Positions 24,827 through 37,997 of a DNA stretch of 64,000 bases are shown here, one piece after another. The DNA comes from an uncultured virus (IMG/VR IMGVR_UViG_3300018414_000001) (lineage: Duplodnaviria; Heunggongvirae; Uroviricota; Caudoviricetes): IMG/VR virus record IMGVR_UViG_3300018414_000001. One strand, given 5' to 3'. Below the pieces are notes generated by a model. The model had not been told where the DNA came from. It searched no databases and was given only the letters and a program-made list of their open reading frames with translations. The translations under genes were made by a program, and so were the position numbers. Position 1 is the stretch's first letter; each line of letters opens with the position of its first letter.

Positions 24827-25537
24827 TTAGTAGACGTGTTCGGCATGGCTTGGCTCCTTGATCTCCTGTTGAACGCTTCGTGTCGGCACGCGGTTCGGCG
24901 GTTTGAAGGGAGGGACGCCAAAGACAGCCCCGAAGTTCCCGCCTTCGTCGGCGTCCCACTGTTCCTTGGCGAGTTTGGCGGACCAGCCTCTGGGGCGATG
25001 GCCACCATGCTTTTTGATCCACCCGAGGATATCGGCCTCGGTGTACTGTTCATCGTCCGCGCTGTAACTGACGACCTCCAACAGGTCCGTCATCGGCACG
25101 CCACGAACGAACAGGTCAATCGCATACCGCTCCGTCGTGAAATCGTCGGCACCCTGTAATACGCTGGTGAGATATTTCTTCTCCAACGCCAAGGTGTAAA
25201 TCTGGACCGCGAGTTCCGCCTCCCGTAAATTCATGCGGAACAATTCGGCGATGTCGCTGTTATCCTCGATAGTGGGTTCGCGCCGTTCAAGTTCTCTGAC
25301 GGTGACTCGCATCCTCTGCGGCTGTGTGTCGGGCACGGGGAGATATCTGACGGCGACACGAATAAGCGCCCTCGCTTGCAGCAAGCGGAGTTGGTCGGCA
25401 GCCTCTTTGTCATCCCATGTGAAATAGTCATGCAGAGGGGAGTTTGGGTTTCTCGCGTCCTCAAGAACGGCCTCCGGGCGCAATTCCCCGTGGGTGCGCC
25501 GGATCAGTTCAAGATGCTCGCGTTGAATTGGGGTCAT
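24827..25537 (-). CDS. Conserved phage protein, candidate partner of the RAMP-like gene
   Basis: LELIRRTHGELRPEAVLEDARNPNSPLHDYFTWDDKEAA..RLLQARALIR motif. Start MTPIQ at 25537. Confidence 0.7.
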   Translation of the reverse strand: MTPIQREHLELIRRTHGELRPEAVLEDARNPNSPLHDYFTWDDKEAADQLRLLQARALIRVAVRYLPVPDTQPQRMRVTVRELERREPTIEDNSDIAELFRMNLREAELAVQIYTLALEKKYLTSVLQGADDFTTERYAIDLFVRGVPMTDLLEVVSYSADDEQYTEADILGWIKKHGGHRPRGWSAKLAKEQWDADEGGNFGAVFGVPPFKPPNRVPTRSVQQEIKEPSHAEHVY

Positions 25538-26010
25538 TCGCTCGCGCCTCCGCAACGGATACAAAGTCTGTTGCCCGGGCCGTCACTCATGAACAGTTTC
25601 TCGCAGCGTAAGCACTTTCGCTGCGCGCGACGGTCGGCAGAACTGATGGTTGGCCGATTGGTCTGAGCCATATAAGGAGTAGGAGGATTAACCGGAGCGA
25701 CCGCAGCCGGTTTGAATATCTGCGCGGTTCTTTTTCTCATTGGGCATAAGGAAGCCACGGGATCAGAGACTCGCCTAAGAGGCATCGGCCGAGGAGCCAG
25801 TTTCATTCTGCTGCGCGCGCAATAGACCATGGCGATATACGGAAACTCCATTATCTTCATGATTTCTGAGCCGACGACACCGTCGTTCCAAAGCTTGGCG
25901 AACTGCGCCTTCTTTTCTTTTGACCATGGCGGCCCGTAGCGGCGGTTATGGCCAGCACCCATCGGACAACCGAAGCTGCTTAGCATCGGTTCTGCTTTCC
26001 GTTTTGTCAT
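25534..26010 (-). CDS. GcrA-like N-terminal HTH plus C-terminal Zn ribbon
   Basis: WSKEKKAQFAKLWNDG..SEI; RKCLRCEKLFMSDGPGNRLCIRC. Confidence 0.55.
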   Translation of the reverse strand: MTKRKAEPMLSSFGCPMGAGHNRRYGPPWSKEKKAQFAKLWNDGVVGSEIMKIMEFPYIAMVYCARSRMKLAPRPMPLRRVSDPVASLCPMRKRTAQIFKPAAVAPVNPPTPYMAQTNRPTISSADRRAQRKCLRCEKLFMSDGPGNRLCIRCGGASE

Positions 26011-26204
26011 GTCGCCACCATAACCGGATGCTCGTCTTTAGGATCGCGCACCGTAGTCGGGTAACGCCGGTCCAGATATCGGCAGCGCATACATAGCCGG
26101 AGGTTCTGACTGCCGAACCGATGACCACTAAGGTCACATTCGTCTATAGGTGCTGCCGTCGAGGGCACGATTGTAAATTGCAACATACTGCGCCTCACGA
26201 TCAT
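26007..26204 (-). CDS. 65 aa hypothetical protein downstream of the array
   Basis: GAGGAG RBS then ATG at 26204 (MIVRRSMLQF...). ATGA overlap with the next gene. Confidence 0.55.
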   Translation of the reverse strand: MIVRRSMLQFTIVPSTAAPIDECDLSGHRFGSQNLRLCMRCRYLDRRYPTTVRDPKDEHPVMVAT

Positions 26205-26220
26205 TTTGCTCCTCGGGTTT

Positions 26221-26245
26221 GGGGTGTCGTTATTACCGACACCCC
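26221..26245 (-). terminator. 9-bp hairpin closing the array (no U-tract on the minus strand; terminator or processing stem)
   Basis: GGGGTGTCG-GTAATAA-CGACACCCC. Confidence 0.55.
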
Positions 26246-26896
26246 TCCCCGCGTTGCGTTGCCTGTCCAGTCCCGGCCACGCGAAGCTTTGCCTAGCCGT
26301 TCCAAGCCTGCGAAGCCTCTCCCGGCGATTTCGTACCGAGCCGGGCCTCGCCATACCAAGCCACTCCTGCGTAGCCCTGCCGTGCCAGTCGCGGCCACTC
26401 GTGACCGCGCCGGGCCTAGCCTGGCCCATCCAAGCCTGCGCTGCCGATCCGTGCGACGCCATTCCAATCGACGCCGCGCCGAGCCTGCGTCGCCATGCCC
26501 GGCTATTCCGTGCCAAGCCTTGCTTGTCGCGGCCTCGCCATTCCTGCGATGCCCCGCCACGCGTAGCCGTTCGTCGTCTCGCGACGCCTCTCGACGCTTG
26601 CGAAGCGTTGCGTGGCCGTGCCAACCCACACCAATCCGCGTCGTTCCTTGCCTAGCCTGCGGTGCCACGCCGCGCCTGTCGTGACCGTTCCTGTCCTCGC
26701 ACCGCCTTGCCTGCGGAGCCAAGCCAAACGTCGCCTCGCCGCTCGCCGCCTTGCCGTTCCTGCGCTGCCCAACCAATCCGGGCCAATCGCGGCGCAGCCG
26801 TACCGTCCGTGCCATTCCTGCGTTTCCAACCCTATCCGCGCGTCTCCTGGCCCCGCCTCGGCGTGCCGTGCCAGCCCTGACCACACCTGCCATGCC
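26244..26896 (-). ncRNA. Array of 11 guide-like units of (GGN/CGN)NN pentamers separated by CGCA (VIPR-type RNA array)
   Basis: Separators seen on + as cctgcg/cttgcg at 26307, 26366, 26435, 26484, 26543, 26597, 26656, 26710, 26759, 26817, plus cctgcc at 26886. Spacings are 59,69,49,59,54,59,54,49,58,69, i.e. 5n+4 with one 1-nt exception. Confidence 0.85.
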
Positions 26897-26916
26897 AAAC
26901 AAAGGGGAGCGAACCC

Positions 26917-27678
26917 TCAAGCCGCATCGGCCTCTCTAACCAGTTGATCCGCATGTTGCCGTTGTGATCCTGATGAAATCGACCGGGAAGCCAATCCGTT
27001 GTCCAACTGCGTTTCGCCCTCTTGGACGATATCGAATGTGCCGAAGCCGATGCCCGCCGACATTTTGGAATCCGGCCTTCCTTCCCCAATTCCCCCTTGC
27101 GCTCCAACCCGGGCCAAGAGGTTGATGACATCGGCGGGGGAGAATTGATCAGCGTCGAACTTCACCCGAAGGGTCGCGCCCCATCCGCCAGCGGGCCACT
27201 GCGGCCGCACACGAAGGTCAACCACTCCTGTCGCGTTTCGCGCGGCCATCACGGATCGTTCGGGCCTGCCGCCGGTAATCCGAACCAACGGCGTCCCATC
27301 GTCCGCGTCCCACCCGTCCGCGATAATGAACAGACTGAGTTTCGCCAACGTCATCTTGAACCCCACCAATCGGCAGGCCGAGATCATGCCGTTGCGAAAA
27401 GCCCCCGCCGCGATGCCATCCCATCCTTCGCGGGACAGATGACGCGCACCGTTAAACACGGCGTCGAAATCTTTAGGCTCGCGCTTCCGCCCCTTGTTGC
27501 TCTGGGACCCGGCCTGTTGGGTAGTCGCGATCTGCTCCAACGCCTTCGTTGAGAACTTGTTGATCATCAGGGGAGCCGTTCCGACGATATCGACAACCAA
27601 TTCCCTTAAATTCGGTGGACTGATCAAGACCTGTGTCTGCATCCCCACCGAGGCTTTAGTCGCTGCTCTTGCCATCAT
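26917..27678 (-). CDS. RAMP/Cas7-like RNA-binding protein (Vipr-like effector)
   Basis: VDIVGTAPLMI first strand, GIAAGAFRNGMISAC helix and C-terminal Gly-rich loop GGIGEGRP..GIGFGTF. AAGGAG RBS. The array begins about 20 nt after the stop. Confidence 0.8.
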   Translation of the reverse strand: MMARAATKASVGMQTQVLISPPNLRELVVDIVGTAPLMINKFSTKALEQIATTQQAGSQSNKGRKREPKDFDAVFNGARHLSREGWDGIAAGAFRNGMISACRLVGFKMTLAKLSLFIIADGWDADDGTPLVRITGGRPERSVMAARNATGVVDLRVRPQWPAGGWGATLRVKFDADQFSPADVINLLARVGAQGGIGEGRPDSKMSAGIGFGTFDIVQEGETQLDNGLASRSISSGSQRQHADQLVREADAA

Positions 27679-27697
27679 TTAACTCCTTGTTGGTCGT

Positions 27698-27732
27698 GTG
27701 GCCTATGTGGCCACCGGAGTTAATTCTGTCAA
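27698..27732 (-). promoter_or_regulatory. Promoter TTGACA-N17-CACATA overlapped by palindrome GTGGCC-N5-GGCCAC
   Basis: -35 at 27732-27727; palindrome at 27698-27714. Confidence 0.65.
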
Positions 27733-27941
27733 CCTTTAATTTCCCTTTGCTGCTTTTTTTCCGCCATCAATGCGAGAACAACTCTGGTCTGTTTGGGAAC
27801 CTTCTTCATTCCCCGATAGCGTCTCGCCTGCCTGGGGCTGATTTCAAGCAGCGCGGCAACTCTCCTGTCCATTTCCAGGACGGGGAGAGTGATCGAAATT
27901 CCATTGGCCCTCAAAAGAGTGGCATACGCCTGGTCTATCAA
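27729..27941 (-). CDS. Small HTH regulator
   Basis: RRVAALLEISPRQARRYRG..KVPKQTRVVLAL. Confidence 0.6.
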   Translation of the reverse strand: MIDQAYATLLRANGISITLPVLEMDRRVAALLEISPRQARRYRGMKKVPKQTRVVLALMAEKKQQREIKG

Positions 27942-28984
27942 TGGAACTCCGTCCCGCCCTTTCGGGTCAGATATTCTGGAGATATGTATTTCACGATGAC
28001 ACGCCCGATCCGGGGGTCTGTCCGCTCTTTTTGTGATCTCACGACGACTCCTTCTCGCATATGCGCCATATTACCGGATATGGTCGCACCTGAAGCCAGC
28101 CGCTCGACGATGCCGCCAACAAGGGGGCCGCTGTAGAGAATCGGAACCGACGGCGCGATCTCTCCGACAACCCGATTGAATTCCTCCCGGTTAAGCCACC
28201 GGCCGCGCCCCGGAGTGCCCAGGTAAATATCGAAGGCCGAGAAAGTCGGTTCTGCCTGCCCATACGACAGGTCTTGAACCGTGCCGCCGTATATCTCCCC
28301 GAAAACAGTAGCAGACCGGCCATTGAAGGCCCCTCTTAACCGGCGTCTCATTCCAAATGCTGCTTTGAGGTAAAGGTTCTCAGGATTGGGTGCCTTCAGG
28401 ACGTGTCCTGTCTCGCCCAGGCTCTTGCTGTAAACAAGGGTGTCGCCGTCCGGAAGCCGAGGGTCGTTCAAGCCGGGAAGGTAGCCTATGGCGCACATGG
28501 TCCCGTGCAGCTTTTCGGTGATCTCGACTGGCTCTCCGTTCCTGACGACATGAGGCCAGCGCCGGGCGCTTCGTATATCGTAAGCGACTGTCGAACCAGG
28601 AAGAAAGATGCACTCCCCCCTCCATGGGGTGGGGATGGGTTGTTCGTATTTGACCACCCCAAGGGAAACTGAAACATCCTCTCCCACCTTCCCGCGGGGG
28701 ATAGGGCCGATCAGAATACCCTCACTGAACGCCCCCCGGAGCCTGTAGGGCCGCACCCGATTCTTCTTCTCCCCGAATAGCTTGGCCTGCCCTTTGAGGG
28801 ACGCCGCAAGATCACCGGGTAGCACGGAGTCAGGCGGCAGGTAGATGGCGTTATCGGAATTCCCGTAACGTCCTTTGGGCACAATCACATCGATATCGAA
28901 AACCTTGGCGAGTTCAATCTCGTCGGCCCCTGGGATGGGACTAATCGACTCAATCCGAACCACGGGGCAAGAAAAATCGCTCAC
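27938..28984 (-). CDS. ATP-dependent RNA ligase, DRB0094/Rnl2-like family
   Basis: N-terminal PIPGADEIELA, motif I TEKLHGT, VFGEIYG, FDI, REGVVV, K.ISPEYL. Confidence 0.9.
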   Translation of the reverse strand: MSDFSCPVVRIESISPIPGADEIELAKVFDIDVIVPKGRYGNSDNAIYLPPDSVLPGDLAASLKGQAKLFGEKKNRVRPYRLRGAFSEGILIGPIPRGKVGEDVSVSLGVVKYEQPIPTPWRGECIFLPGSTVAYDIRSARRWPHVVRNGEPVEITEKLHGTMCAIGYLPGLNDPRLPDGDTLVYSKSLGETGHVLKAPNPENLYLKAAFGMRRRLRGAFNGRSATVFGEIYGGTVQDLSYGQAEPTFSAFDIYLGTPGRGRWLNREEFNRVVGEIAPSVPILYSGPLVGGIVERLASGATISGNMAHMREGVVVRSQKERTDPRIGRVIVKYISPEYLTRKGGTEFH

Positions 28985-29817
28985 CGTTCATTTTCCCCCT
29001 TGACTGTGCTGGCCGTTATGTCCATGTTGCGGGTGTCCAGCAGACTCCCCGCTGGACTGACAGACGGAGAACATGATGCCATGGGCAACTTTGGCTGCGA
29101 TGCAATCCTGGCAAGCGGCGCCCTCTCGGGCGCCGCAGCCATGTCAGGGGTATATTTCCTCCGCAACTCGCTAACCGTTTCATCGTAGATTTCGACCAAA
29201 CAATCAGAGCGCAGCCTCGCGGCATTGATCACCGGAGAGGCAAGCCGCATAAGAGTTTCCGCTAAAACGTACGGCGTGAACCTCAAATTCGATATTATCT
29301 TGTTCCGCAAGCGATCAGCGATGCGCTGAAAGCCAGCATCGCTGACAATTATCTCCCCCGCCGCTCGGCGCAATGACCCAAATAGAACCGGCGATAATGG
29401 TCCGCTACCGTCGCCATGAACTGCATATTGATGACGACAGGAGCCGCAGCGATAGGCTCGTCCCTCGATTACTCGGACATCGTCCGAACCACACCACCCG
29501 CAGAGCCGAACCGTAAGCGGTAGACGCCATTGGGCCAGAAGCCTAGCGCCGTCCGCTGTGTTGCATTTATGGCACGCCGCCGCGCAGGTCTCCCAACAGA
29601 CCCTGCCCCCCGCACTCGCTGGGATGACATGCTCAATCGTGCAGAGTGTATCGCCTCGCCGCCAACGGTTCATCACCACGCCGCAGTAGCAACAGCGCCA
29701 GTTTTGAGCCTCGGCAAGCCGGTCCCGCAGAAGCATGGAGGGGGCAAGGGCGGAATGGTTCTGATCAACCTCCATGAACGCATAAGCCGCCTTATGGTCC
29801 CATCGGTCGATAATCAT
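28981..29817 (-). CDS. HNH endonuclease domain protein
   Basis: EAQNWRCCYCG..TIEHVIPASAGG..AACHKCN. Confidence 0.8.
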   Translation of the reverse strand: MIIDRWDHKAAYAFMEVDQNHSALAPSMLLRDRLAEAQNWRCCYCGVVMNRWRRGDTLCTIEHVIPASAGGRVCWETCAAACHKCNTADGARLLAQWRLPLTVRLCGWCGSDDVRVIEGRAYRCGSCRHQYAVHGDGSGPLSPVLFGSLRRAAGEIIVSDAGFQRIADRLRNKIISNLRFTPYVLAETLMRLASPVINAARLRSDCLVEIYDETVSELRRKYTPDMAAAPERAPLARIASQPKLPMASCSPSVSPAGSLLDTRNMDITASTVKGENER

Positions 29818-30139: not shown

Positions 30140-30295
30140 TCATCGTGACGACAGTTCATGAAGCATGATTTTCCGATACCTCTCCACGGTGCCTTTGCTG
30201 ACACCAAGATCGGCCGCGATCTTCCGAAGGCTCTCTCCGGCCTGCAACCGCTCGATCATCATCTCAATGATGGCCTCCGGCAGAAAGTTTCCCAT
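30140..30295 (-). CDS. 51 aa HTH protein
   Basis: Manual translation MGNFLPEAIIEMIERLQAGESLRKIAADLGVSKGTVERYRKIMLHELSSR. Confidence 0.7.
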   Translation of the reverse strand: MGNFLPEAIIEMMIERLQAGESLRKIAADLGVSKGTVERYRKIMLHELSSR

Positions 30296-31674
30296 CACCA
30301 CTCCAGGGCGTTCAGGACACCAGCGGGAAGCGTTGAACCATAAGAGTCGGTGTCATCGTTGTCCCACTTCGGAGCATCCAAAGAACCCACCATGTAAGGG
30401 TTGTCCTGGCTCTTGCGGTAGGATCGCACAAAGGCACGCAACACATCCGGCGACCCCTTGAGGTCGTCCAGAGAGGTTTGTCCTTCCAGGATCGCCAGCA
30501 GCACGATCTGGCAAACATCGGCCCGCATAAAGTCTGGGTAAGCGCGAGAGACCAGTCCCGAGACCTCTATCGTCAGGGCCGCGCCATTTGCATCCGCGAA
30601 CCTGGGAAGCGTCGGCAGATATGGATAGGCGGATAGGATTTTCGGTTGCGCCGGAACCGATATCCTCGGCTTGGAAAAGAGCGGGCGCCAACTCGCCGGA
30701 ATTGTGACGAAAGGCACATTGTCTCTTGCGTACCATGCGATGGAAGTTGCCGACCGGCCCAAGGCCGCGGCTGCCTGATCTGGCGTCGCACCCGCCTCAG
30801 CCAAGGTCGTAAGATCATGTCTCTCCTGCGGCGTCCACCAGCCGCGAGTGGACCAGAGATACCCATAGGGGTAACGAGGCGCAGCAAGCAAATCGGCCAC
30901 ACTACGATCTATGATGGGAGCGGCTTCCGCTGTTTCTTTACGACCCTGCCAGGACTGGCGCATCTTCACGGAAAACGCGCCGTTTTTACAAGCTTTGCAG
31001 ACGGTCGAAGTCAGGCCCCATTCTCTAGCCGCGCCGCTGCGGAATTGGAAATCCGCGGAAGGTTTCTCCTGGCCGCAGTCGCGGCAAATCTTAGTAGGCA
31101 ACAGCGCGTCCAGTTTGGCGCGCGGCGCGTCAGGAGCCGCCTTCCCCCCTTGCCAATAACCGGTGAAATGGCTCTTTCCTTCCAGATTTCCGCAAAGCAT
31201 TTCCTGCGCTTTGCGGAACAGGATGTATGCCGTCTTGAAATTGCACCCGATGTCTTCCGACAACCGGCTGATCGTCACGTCGCCCTTATTGCGCTGGACG
31301 GCTGACAGGAGAAGCAAGATCGTTCTGATCGGAACCTTCAAACCGGCGAACACCGTCCCGCTCGTCAGACTGAAACAAGGATGGCGACCCTTGCATTTCC
31401 ATCGACTGGCGCCGTTTGCCTCGCGGCAACTGTAAACTTTCGTGCTGCTGCACGTTGGGCATGTCGGTTTCCCGTCCGTTCCGGGCCATCGCAAATGACG
31501 CCACATTGCTTCGGCCTCTTCGTCTGTGAGGCCCTTTATGGTGCCCTCGTCAGGCAAGAGCGGATAAGACGGAGCCGCTTTGGCGCTAACCGCCTGAGGC
31601 GGCAAAAGTTTCTCCCACTCCGAGGTTTTCCAGGAGTTCAGAAACTCATCAAGGTATGTGGTTGTTCCGTCCAT
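30295..31674 (-). CDS. IS1595-transposase-derived protein (Zn ribbon + HTH, DDE core absent) fused to additional domains
   Basis: LTDEEAEA..LRWP..GKPTCPTC..FSLTSGTVF..LSEDIGCNFKTAY, then almost directly GYWQ. No E-x-D-E/G, TDE or N-x-x-E catalytic motifs seen. Confidence 0.75.
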   Translation of the reverse strand: MDGTTTYLDEFLNSWKTSEWEKLLPPQAVSAKAAPSYPLLPDEGTIKGLTDEEAEAMWRHLRWPGTDGKPTCPTCSSTKVYSCREANGASRWKCKGRHPCFSLTSGTVFAGLKVPIRTILLLLSAVQRNKGDVTISRLSEDIGCNFKTAYILFRKAQEMLCGNLEGKSHFTGYWQGGKAAPDAPRAKLDALLPTKICRDCGQEKPSADFQFRSGAAREWGLTSTVCKACKNGAFSVKMRQSWQGRKETAEAAPIIDRSVADLLAAPRYPYGYLWSTRGWWTPQERHDLTTLAEAGATPDQAAAALGRSATSIAWYARDNVPFVTIPASWRPLFSKPRISVPAQPKILSAYPYLPTLPRFADANGAALTIEVSGLVSRAYPDFMRADVCQIVLLAILEGQTSLDDLKGSPDVLRAFVRSYRKSQDNPYMVGSLDAPKWDNDDTDSYGSTLPAGVLNALEW

Positions 31675-36509: not shown

Positions 36510-36971
36510 TCAAGGATATGCGTCCTGATTATCGCTTACGCATCGCCGCAACGGCGATGGCCTCGGCGTAAACCCGTTGCGATGCGCGATGCCGCTGATG
36601 ACGTTTTTCTTCACACCCAGTTCCCGCGCGACCTGAGACGCGGTTAATTCCCGATCCCAAAGTGTGCGGGCCTGCGCGATAAATTCGTCTCCGTGATGCC
36701 GTAGAGATTTCGGCCCGCAGGTTCGGCAATATCTGATTGACCTATGCCGCTCTGGCACGAACAACACATCGCACGCCTCGCAGTTCATCATGCCGTACCG
36801 GACACGCTTATCAAGCGGCGCGCTGACGCGAGGAATGGACCGGCGACGTAGAATTTGTTGAACGCGCTGCCATGATATTCCAAACATCCGTGCGATATGA
36901 CCCACTCCTTGTCCCGCATCGGACAAGATGTAAATTCGTTCGTTGCGGTCTGTTTTTTCGGGTTCTGCCAT
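36510..36971 (-). CDS. HTH - Zn finger - GcrA-like HTH protein
   Basis: IARMFGISWQRVQQIL; CEAC..CRTC; LWDRELTASQVARELGVKKNVISGIAHR. Confidence 0.65.
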   Translation of the reverse strand: MAEPEKTDRNERIYILSDAGQGVGHIARMFGISWQRVQQILRRRSIPRVSAPLDKRVRYGMMNCEACDVLFVPERHRSIRYCRTCGPKSLRHHGDEFIAQARTLWDRELTASQVARELGVKKNVISGIAHRNGFTPRPSPLRRCVSDNQDAYP

Positions 36972-37142
36972 TATCCTGGCTCCTTTTTCTGCCTCTCCAT
37001 TTCCGCCAGCGCCGCACAGGCGAGGCGCATCCAATAGTCGATGTATGCCTGCCCGAGGAATTCATTTTCCCACAGCCGTTCGATCTCGTCACGTCCCAGC
37101 CCGGTGCAGGCCCCGTGGAGCGCGATGGCGATGGCGCGGGGG

Positions 37143-37997
37143 TCAGTCATCGTTCCCCTCGAACAACCCGGCCTGACGCGCGGGGACGGGGGTGGCGCGG
37201 GGGATGAACAGATCAGCCTGACGGTAGGCGGCTTCGATGCGGCGGAGGGCGATGTCGAAGTAGGGTTCGTGGATTTCGATGCCGATTGGAACACGTCCCT
37301 GTTTGATCGCCGCGACCATGCTTGTCCCCGATCCCATAAAGGGGTCGCATACTGATTCGCCTGGGTCAGTCCATGTCGCGATGTGATCGTATGCGAGGGC
37401 GTATGGCATTGGTGCCGGATGATCGCCAGCGTCGCCCATTTCGGCGTTCGGGATAACCCACCAATTCCGCCGCAACCCCGTGGACGGCACAAGTTCGCCA
37501 TTCCGTTTGGGGACACTCTTACTGCCGTCCGCCTCACGCCGATTCCCATGAATAACCGTTCCACCCCATTTATTGCGCCAGTCCTTAATTCCGTTGAAAT
37601 GAGCAGGCGCACTCTTTGAGAAAACAAACATGTACTCAAAGGCGGGATGGTAACGGTTGGCGTCTGGGAAAGTGACACCCTCACGGCAATAGATCATCGT
37701 ATCGTGCAGCCGTAAACCACACTCAATCGCGTGCAACGCATGACGAAAACTCTCGCCTGTTTCGCTGCCGTCGATGACCTGATCCGCGACATTCCAAACG
37801 CAAACGCCGCCCGGCAACAACAAATTGGCGATATGGTTGATTACCGCGAGACAATTTACAGGTGCGTGGCCACCATAATCGCGCACATTGCCGTACGGCG
37901 GGCTCGTTACGACGCAGTTGATTGGGGCAAGCCCCGGCAGAATCTCCCTGCAATCGCCCAAATAAAGTCTGGCATCCCCGATCACTTCAACCCTCAC
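37143..37997 (-). CDS. N4/N6 DNA methyltransferase (beta class)
   Basis: LYLGDC, VTSPPY, HPAPMP, DPFMGSGT. GTG start overlaps the upstream stop. Confidence 0.9.
   Translation of the reverse strand: MRVEVIGDARLYLGDCREILPGLAPINCVVTSPPYGNVRDYGGHAPVNCLAVINHIANLLLPGGVCVWNVADQVIDGSETGESFRHALHAIECGLRLHDTMIYCREGVTFPDANRYHPAFEYMFVFSKSAPAHFNGIKDWRNKWGGTVIHGNRREADGSKSVPKRNGELVPSTGLRRNWWVIPNAEMGDAGDHPAPMPYALAYDHIATWTDPGESVCDPFMGSGTSMVAAIKQGRVPIGIEIHEPYFDIALRRIEAAYRQADLFIPRATPVPARQAGLFEGNDD

Follow-up and report, generated by a model that had tools for sequence, protein, structure and literature searches.

Systems termed VIPR, short for Viral Interference Programmable Repeat, are described in a 2026 preprint (bioRxiv 10.64898/2026.04.26.720920) as a phage-borne RAMP protein, Vipr, together with vrRNAs composed of 9–16 YNNGG repeats. 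In the code set out in its text, the NN bases pair with double-stranded DNA and one target base is skipped, usually the wobble position of a codon; as a result, competing elements are silenced at the level of transcription. The natural targets it names are satellites, prophages or prophage regulators, and other VIPRs, with an NN match of at least 80% as the target criterion. The systems of that preprint have no self-target, NNNGG variants are named in the Methods, and the legend of fig. S18 mentions ‘staggered’ vrRNA arrays with 1-nt overlaps. According to a companion preprint on structures (10.64898/2026.04.26.720927), Vipr protomers assemble into a filament along the vrRNA, in which every GGY is sequestered and the NN bases are exposed for pairing; a third preprint (10.64898/2026.10.15.759431) deals with infection biology. 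Here, we describe a locus in a 64,000-nucleotide stretch, hereafter the window, of the uncultured virus IMGVR_UViG_3300018414_000001 (Caudoviricetes). A gene for a predicted Cas7/RAMP-like guide-binding protein, vipr (26917–27678), is directly followed there by an array of pentamer repeats (26245–26890), both on the minus strand. Gene and array are a VIPR system of a freshwater phage, because the protein has a Cas7-like fold and is homologous to a protein of Escherichia phage SUSP1 (phiSUSP1), the link between gene and array is conserved, and architecture and code are as in the preprint. Very probably, this Cas7-like protein and its staggered 11-unit vrRNA array are programmed against two transposase families, whose genes they would repress in the host or in rivals of the phage.

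The minus strand of the array consisted of 11 abutting units (U1 to U11) of 49–69 nt each, built of (C/A)NNGG pentamers. The units shared one plan, with a GCAGG head, 8–12 pentamers and four final bases ending in C (NNNC). Split points were the recurring C|GCAGG junctions, and a single head was degenerate (GCAAG, in U6). Unit lengths (49, 54, 58, 59 and 69 nt among them) were mostly of the form 5k + 4, so that the NNNCG end of each unit and the GCAGG head of the following unit have one G in common. Across 110 pentamers, position 1 was C in 59%, A in 26% and T in 11%, positions 2 and 3 were near-uniform, and G occupied position 4 in 79% and position 5 in 89%. For lags of 5, 10 and 15 nt, the G autocorrelation of the tract was 0.50, 0.39 and 0.37, respectively. 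The tract sat between the stop codon of the vipr ORF and an ORF at 25534–26010, and all nearby genes were on the minus strand. It agrees with the VIPR repeat definition (at least four tandem YNNGG on the strand of the gene, GGY conserved, NN hypervariable), from which the A at position 1 departs. No second tract of such pentamers was found in the window, and the array scanner raised no flags on 527 kb of unrelated control loci. Scans of the array for Rfam families and tRNAs returned no matches, and hence no known RNA family or ribozyme.

The dinucleotides that a first-pass annotation of the bare sequence had quoted for U1, U7 and U11 proved to be positions 2 and 3 of the minus-strand pentamers, at the places where it had read them. 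Its decoding, in which NN supplies codon positions 1 and 2 and the third base is skipped, is the rule given for VIPR in the preprint’s text. It had also held that U1 and U7 decode to motifs of IS1-type transposases, and both were found to match PF03400-type transposase-like genes at the homologous motifs.

The strongest case was U7 (26489–26547), with the dinucleotides AT GA CG CA AA TT AC AT CG AT, which read I-E-R-Q-N-L-T-M-R-M in the sense direction. A gapped-pattern search, as proposed in the first-pass annotation, returned 75 exact matches in genome contigs (one genome per species), with approximately 1 expected by our own estimate (596 Gb × 2 strands / 4^20). All 75 sites were in frame at the sequence ...STS(Y/H)IERQNLTMRMxMRRFT... 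of ORFs whose median length was 284 aa. This is the Glu motif of IS1-like genes, and the Glu of ERQN is presumably the catalytic one. Ten of 12 sampled target ORFs scored above the gathering score of 24.1 for Pfam DDE_Tnp_IS1 (PF03400), the other two reaching 19.6 and 21.4, and the Pfam domain spanned the U7 motif. The exact hits fell in Acidobacteriota, Alphaproteobacteria, Planctomycetota, Bacteroidota and other groups; viral contigs contained one exact match.

U1 (26822–26890) carries GT CA CT AC AC GA GG CA GA GC TA TT, which reads V-Q-L-T-T-D-G-H-E-A-Y-L(-K), again in the sense direction, and corresponds to the second-Asp motif region of the IS1-like genes. It matched at 22/24 bases in five of 150 locus-strands (from the 75 U7 loci), above a maximum of 18 in 100 shuffles of dinucleotide order. 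In 50 of the 75 loci, its best in-frame site lay 67–71 codons upstream of the U7 site, where the genes read VQLTTDGH(K/R)AYL. A complete match (24/24, or 27/28 with the two end pentamers) was present in one metagenome contig, L158, at the homologous site of a 315-aa IS1-like ORF reading VQLTTDGHEAYLK. Viral contigs contained no exact U1 pattern.

Two further units pointed to the same genes. The central eight dinucleotides of U11 (26245–26311), TA AA TT GT CG CT CA AA, spell Y-N-F-V-R-L-H-K, an instance of the YNFxRxH motif. This core matched at 16/16 in two loci (L098 and L145) and at 15/16 in eight more of 84 loci, and the first ten dinucleotides matched at 16/20 (80%) in seven loci. The best in-frame U11 site lay at +37 codons from the U7 site in 40 of 75 loci. 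U10 (26312–26370), for which the first-pass annotation had offered no reading, was readable on the opposite strand, its reverse complement giving S-R-(I/M)-V-(D/E)-G-S-(I/M)-(N/K)-T. Antisense matches reached 18/20 in L089 (SRMVGVSINT), 17/20 in three loci and 16/20 in two; the 13 best sites were all in frame, 522–540 nt upstream of the U7 site. The probable target of U10 is thus the helix-turn-helix region at the N terminus of these genes, read from the opposite strand. Together, U1, U7, the U11 core and U10 (antisense) correspond to four conserved motifs within a single family of IS1-type DDE transposase-like genes. The peptides against which the first-pass annotation had compared its decoding occur in real genes: VQLTTDGHKAYL in L090, L120, L141 and L143, YNFVRIHK in L091, L103 and L113, and YNFVRLHK in L145.

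U5 (26602–26660) and U6 (26548–26601) spell two motifs of a different family, the IS1595-family transposases, for which a set of 37 loci with genes from alphaproteobacterial genomes was compiled. U6 (V-E-V-D-E-T-Y-V-G, the first-Asp motif) matched at 18/18 on VEVDETYVG in L193 and at 17/18 in four or more others among the 37 loci, a level reached by none of 200 shuffles. U5 (Y-K-T-A-F-V-L-T-H-K, the helix-turn-helix region) matched at 20/20 on YKTAFVLTHK in four viral contigs, three of which had one common ORF. The targeted ORFs scored well above the NF033547 cut-off of 75 bits (U5: 148.7 in L215 and 159.7 in L216; U6: 197.5 in L193). The IS1595 genes were multi-copy, with 22, 22 and 16 matches in genomes G012, G070 and G093, respectively, and with up to 22 matches per genome these targets behave as ordinary insertion sequences. 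The earlier claim that one array covers two DDE families thus held, with U6 and U5 complete on IS1595-family genes beside the IS1-type matches.

In terms of the VIPR target criterion, NN identity was 100% for U1, U5, U6 and U7 and 90% for U10, all in frame, and the base skipped in these guide matches was always the wobble base of a codon. In-frame matches to two transposase families are thus established for at least four guides (U1, U5, U6 and U7) and probable for U10 and U11. No unit had a site in the window that exceeded 200 shuffles, i.e. self-targeting was not detected in this part of the phage genome.

The longest ORF of vipr encodes 253 aa; homologs suggest a start near 27642, which would yield a protein of 241 aa. 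Its product matched phrog_4652, of unknown function, and belonged to a family of 7094 relatives (E ≤ 1e-3) with no Pfam domain and no name, in which a G-rich stretch, GIGEGRPDSKxSAGxGFG, is conserved. An AlphaFold (AF2) model had a pLDDT of 84 and a pTM of 0.76. In a Foldseek search of the PDB, all 44 matches at E ≤ 0.001 were subunits of type III Csm/Cmr, type VII and Cas7-11 effector complexes. On the basis of this model, Vipr is predicted to have a RAMP/Cas7-like fold. With hhalign, the family profile aligned nearly full length with the 195-aa phiSUSP1 gene product (probability 93.4%, E 2.5e-7, 176 columns), and the neighbouring 146-aa phiSUSP1 gene gave no match. The 195-aa gene (28474–29061, minus strand) lies behind vrRNA1, the phiSUSP1 arrays being found at the expected gaps; its size and place suggest that it is the vipr gene of that phage. 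Similarity to the SUSP1 protein is remote, and no Escherichia phage was among the relatives recovered by tblastn at E ≤ 1e-5. The link between gene and array was examined in 82 loci encoding relatives, namely 80 from IMG/VR (some of them near-duplicates), Mycobacterium phage Quico and Cy-LDV1. A same-strand pentamer array adjoined the gene in 70 of them; in two, the sole hit was at threshold level and on the opposite strand, and ten had no array.

A blastn search with the array itself led to Mycobacterium phage Quico, just upstream of its Vipr homolog. There, an unannotated gap before gp57 (QUICO_57) holds a GGCNN array with GGCA phase breaks (NC_028751.1, approximately 37294–37560; L001, 2064–2330), and gp57 is 34% identical to the Vipr-like protein of the window. 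Relatives occurred in 25 Mycobacterium phage and five Gordonia phage records, annotated as ‘hypothetical’; in Florinda, the stretch that holds the array bears a protein annotation. These actinophage loci appear to be unannotated VIPR loci. The closest named relative (56% identity) was encoded by the ‘cyanophage’ Cy-LDV1 (BK059895.1; locus GC content 67%), where it is followed by two arrays (L002, 3125–3320 and 3920–4075) separated by a gene related to the window ORF at 24827–25564.

By analogy with the preprints, Vipr protomers would polymerise on each vrRNA, each protomer holding a GG(C/A) triplet and presenting the two variable bases. These bases would pair with double-stranded DNA, with every third target base skipped, and the bound gene would be silenced. 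We infer that the phage represses transposase genes of both families in its host or in rival elements, which might protect it from insertions or handicap a rival; an ‘anti-transposon’ purpose is plausible. Aiming at invariant amino-acid motifs would allow one guide to cover many diverged copies. With wobble bases left unread, one and the same guide would recognise diverged copies in many phyla. The first-pass annotation had expected best hits to predict the host. Hits spread over so many phyla instead reflect conserved protein motifs and give no host prediction.

In a wider and more tentative reading, about which we have more doubt than confidence, VIPR would here confer immunity to transposases that operates on whole protein families. 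Guides would be directed against invariant catalytic and DNA-binding motifs of two DDE families. No earlier RNA-guided system would then have been aimed at amino-acid motifs, as opposed to the DNA of one element, and phages would have a new strategy for countering insertion sequences. The VIPR system itself is already in print, and transposases are possibly a new target class. The main texts of the three VIPR preprints hold no mention of transposase targets that we found; their supplementary data may list some.

Several observations weigh against reading the array as directed at transposases. Five of the 11 units (U2, U3, U4, U8 and U9) have no assigned target, so that the ‘dedicated’ anti-transposon arsenal announced in the first-pass annotation goes further than the matches show. 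Among these units, U2 (26764–26821, with one 4-mer irregularity), U4 (26661–26714) and U9 (26371–26439) had no exact matches in scans of viral contigs. U3 (26715–26763; T-(N/K)-G-A-(D/E)-(D/E)-(F/L)-(F/L)) resembled the IS1595 motif TNxAExF at 13/16, not above shuffles; the fifth guide unit is U8 (26440–26488). The earlier assignment of U11 to a YNFVRIHK motif stood for its core of eight dinucleotides, which match YNFVRLHK, but not for the unit as a whole. The entire unit reached 17/24 (71%), not above the shuffle maximum of 19 in a blind scan and at or below the preprint’s 80% NN criterion, and its flanks (two leading and two trailing dinucleotides) had no match in any sequence examined. The best U10 match (18/20) was barely above the shuffle maximum of 17. 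The TM-scores of the Foldseek matches to Vipr were modest (0.34–0.49).

Furthermore, no single sequence in any collection matched U1, U7, U10 and U11 well together; the natural target, presumably in the host, was therefore not recovered. Contig L158 scored 24/24 for U1, 17/20 for U7, 16/20 for U10 and 17/24 for U11, and was rejected as the natural target with only U1 exact and the other guides at 71–85%. Contig L210, in which an IS1595 gene with a U6 match of 17/18 lies beside an IS1-like fragment with a U7 match of 20/20, was likewise rejected, the other units being unmatched. IS1-like targeting was also confined to this array. When 2279 windows of eight dinucleotides from 77 sources were screened, exact IS1-like hits came only from the array described here (seven; shuffled mean 0.7), and none of the other 82 VIPR loci had an exact eight-dinucleotide window against the IS1-like set. 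Such targeting is thus not a trait of the clade but specific to this phage within the sample. U6 escaped this screen, because many of its pentamers have CG at the end and did not pass the filter for GG.

Two-base decoding is permissive, and ambiguous dinucleotides (CA for H/Q, GA for D/E, AT for I/M and so on) could in principle produce a resemblance to transposases by chance, as the failure of the whole U11 unit to rise above shuffles might suggest. The matches were tested at the level of DNA and not of peptides, however, and 75 exact 20-base matches at one homologous in-frame site face an expectation of approximately 1. Exact matches of U1 (24 bases), U5 (20) and U6 (18) fell in the expected gene families, and the spacing to the U7 site was consistent for U1 (approximately 68 codons upstream), U11 (+37 codons) and U10 (522–540 nt upstream). 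For U1, U5, U6 and U7, chance is already refuted, and as an account of the whole resemblance we give it practically no credence. It is also very improbable, if slightly less so, that the tract is not a guide array at all but a coding sequence, a G-rich structural or decoy RNA (G-quadruplexes, a ring-protein sponge) or a DNA repeat such as iterons. One frame is open across the whole tract (a 239-aa ORF, 26201–26920), GG every 5 nt could form two-tier quadruplexes, and the pentamer spacing with 9–13 repeats per unit recalls TRAP-type binding sites. Yet the ORF had no PHROG or Pfam match and cannot maintain a protein repeat, because the period is 5 nt and unit lengths are mostly not multiples of three. 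The array is always on the strand of the Cas7-like gene and beside it, and these alternatives leave the in-frame transposase matches of the variable bases unexplained. A TRAP-like ring-protein site, a CsrA sponge, G-quadruplexes, Chi or PAM decoys and origin iterons were considered and dropped, given the Cas7 fold and the VIPR preprint.

The nature of the targeted genes bears on a more serious alternative. NCBIfam NF033558 (‘IS1 family transposase’) was the best family for 11 of 12 ORFs, with 46.9–81.6 bits, below the cut-off of 100; we therefore refer to the genes as IS1-like and not as canonical IS1. Terminal inverted repeats were not detected in the flanks of the IS1-like genes in any of the six loci inspected, and the gene was single-copy in both closed chromosomes. 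In five metagenome-assembled genomes (MAGs), 1–5 diverged IS1-like paralogs or fragments were present in each, MAG assembly being able to collapse repeats. These features, too, count against an anti-transposon function: the IS1-like targets may not be active insertion sequences, and for them, the notion of mobile IS1 elements in the first-pass annotation was not borne out. Their assignment to the family holds.

An Xre-type helix-turn-helix gene lay directly beside the IS1-like gene in three contigs of unrelated genomes (L158; L212, 8883–9950; L213, 9259–10413). In L158 and L212 it also encoded an ImmA/IrrE (Peptidase_M78) domain, and in L158 its ORF ended just before the IS1-like gene. The pairing suggests a small regulated two-gene module and not a bare insertion sequence. 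A near-perfect palindrome of 23–24 bp at the start of the IS1-like ORF (L115, 1335–1384; L119, 1341–1387) may be an operator.

The targets might accordingly belong to a competing mobile element (a satellite or an integrative islet) as its recombinase or regulator genes, or they might be domesticated host genes derived from transposases, with the phage silencing a rival or reprogramming its host instead of blocking transposition. If they were the recombinase of a rival, the locus would add another case to the inter-element warfare already published. We consider this explanation unlikely, though far from negligible. It would account for the missing inverted repeats, the single copies in closed chromosomes and the Xre-type neighbours, two of them with ImmA/IrrE domains, and it would accord with the satellites, prophages and other VIPRs that the preprint names as targets. 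Against it, no phage or satellite genes were found within ±8 kb of the IS1-like gene in three loci examined, and the D, D and E motifs look intact. The flanking genes vary from one genome to another and have mostly housekeeping functions, a pattern to be expected of small mobile elements. Of the exact U7 matches, 75 were in cellular genomes and one was in viral contigs, and the IS1595 targets are multi-copy, as described above. Repression of two transposase families by the VIPR locus continues to be the interpretation that we favour.

Immediately after the last unit of the array, a hairpin (26221–26245, minus strand; inverted repeat I9) with arms GGGGTGTCG/CGACACCCC may indicate where the transcript has its 3′ end; it is not followed by a T-run, and a terminator scan gave no minus-strand call for it. 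In a metatranscriptome run, the sole piece from 25900–27700 was a 262-nt contig (26513–26774) wholly inside the array, a weak hint of array transcription in which DNA carry-over is possible.

Further downstream, the gene at 24827–25564 (orf245, minus strand; phrog_15946, of unknown function) is a tentative candidate for an accessory (vap-like) gene. Its homologs lay downstream of vipr and array in 28 of the 82 related loci, making it the only recurrent neighbour; a 70-aa ORF, the RNA ligase, the HNH gene and the GcrA-like gene recurred in none of the 82. Just upstream of the VIPR genes are an RNA ligase (PF09414 plus a PHA02142 OB domain; 27938–28984) and an HNH endonuclease (28981–29817), both on the minus strand. 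The 459-aa protein encoded at 30295–31674 (minus strand) has an IS1595-type zinc ribbon at residues 50–95 (PF12760), with no NCBIfam transposase match and no guide match above chance. Two ORFs on the minus strand, 25534–26010 and 36510–37034, have C-terminal parts that resemble GcrA in a reading of their sequence, the latter alone with a weak Pfam GcrA hit, and two database relatives of the Vipr family are named Roseococcus and Stellaceae; together, these observations point to an alphaproteobacterial host. The early region of the phage also encodes two N6/N4 DNA methyltransferases (PF01555; 13436–15340 and 37143–38090, minus strand) and a recombination pair of an Erf annealing protein and a YqaJ exonuclease. 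Near-identical DNA was present in five freshwater metagenome runs, of which four are possible sources, and the nearest virus record, G001, was a 22-kb fragment without the VIPR region.

The locus suggests that conflict between phages and transposable elements is a further arena for VIPR systems. As a consequence of wobble skipping, one guide is able to track a protein motif through genomes that are very distant from each other, and the abutting ‘staggered’ array is a compact format for multiple guides. The Vipr family is large, as judged from its thousands of relatives and the arrays at most of the loci examined, and occurs without annotation in phages of Mycobacterium and Gordonia.

The closest described counterpart is the type II VIPR of Escherichia phage SUSP1 and of a Pseudomonas fulva prophage. 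Shared with it are a small Cas7-like protein, homologous by profile, YNNGG-type repeats on the strand of the gene, the NN code with a 1-nt skip placed on the wobble base, targets on either strand, the absence of a self-target and the location in a phage. In contrast, the 11 units described here have no 3′ ‘tail’ between guides and abut with a 1-nt overlap. Moreover, A occupies position 1 in 26% of the pentamers, no vap1 homolog was recognised in the window, and the targets found were transposase genes and not satellites or prophage regulators. The single nucleotide shared between adjacent vrRNAs in the staggered arrays, as worded in the legend of fig. S18, fits the 5k + 4 unit lengths observed here. 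The backbone of class 1 CRISPR-Cas complexes (Cas7/Csm3/Cmr4 with crRNA) shares the RAMP fold and, as stated in the texts of the VIPR preprints, polymerisation along the guide RNA and a periodic interruption of pairing. Its period is 6 nt with five pairing bases, compared with 5 nt, two pairing bases and a noncontiguous guide in the present array. CRISPR repeats, cas1/cas2 and other cas genes were not found in the 64-kb window. IS1 represses itself through InsA, the element’s own protein acting at its ends. The shared outcome would be lower transposase expression, but in the present case, repression would come from a foreign RNA-guided complex directed at the interior of the coding sequence.

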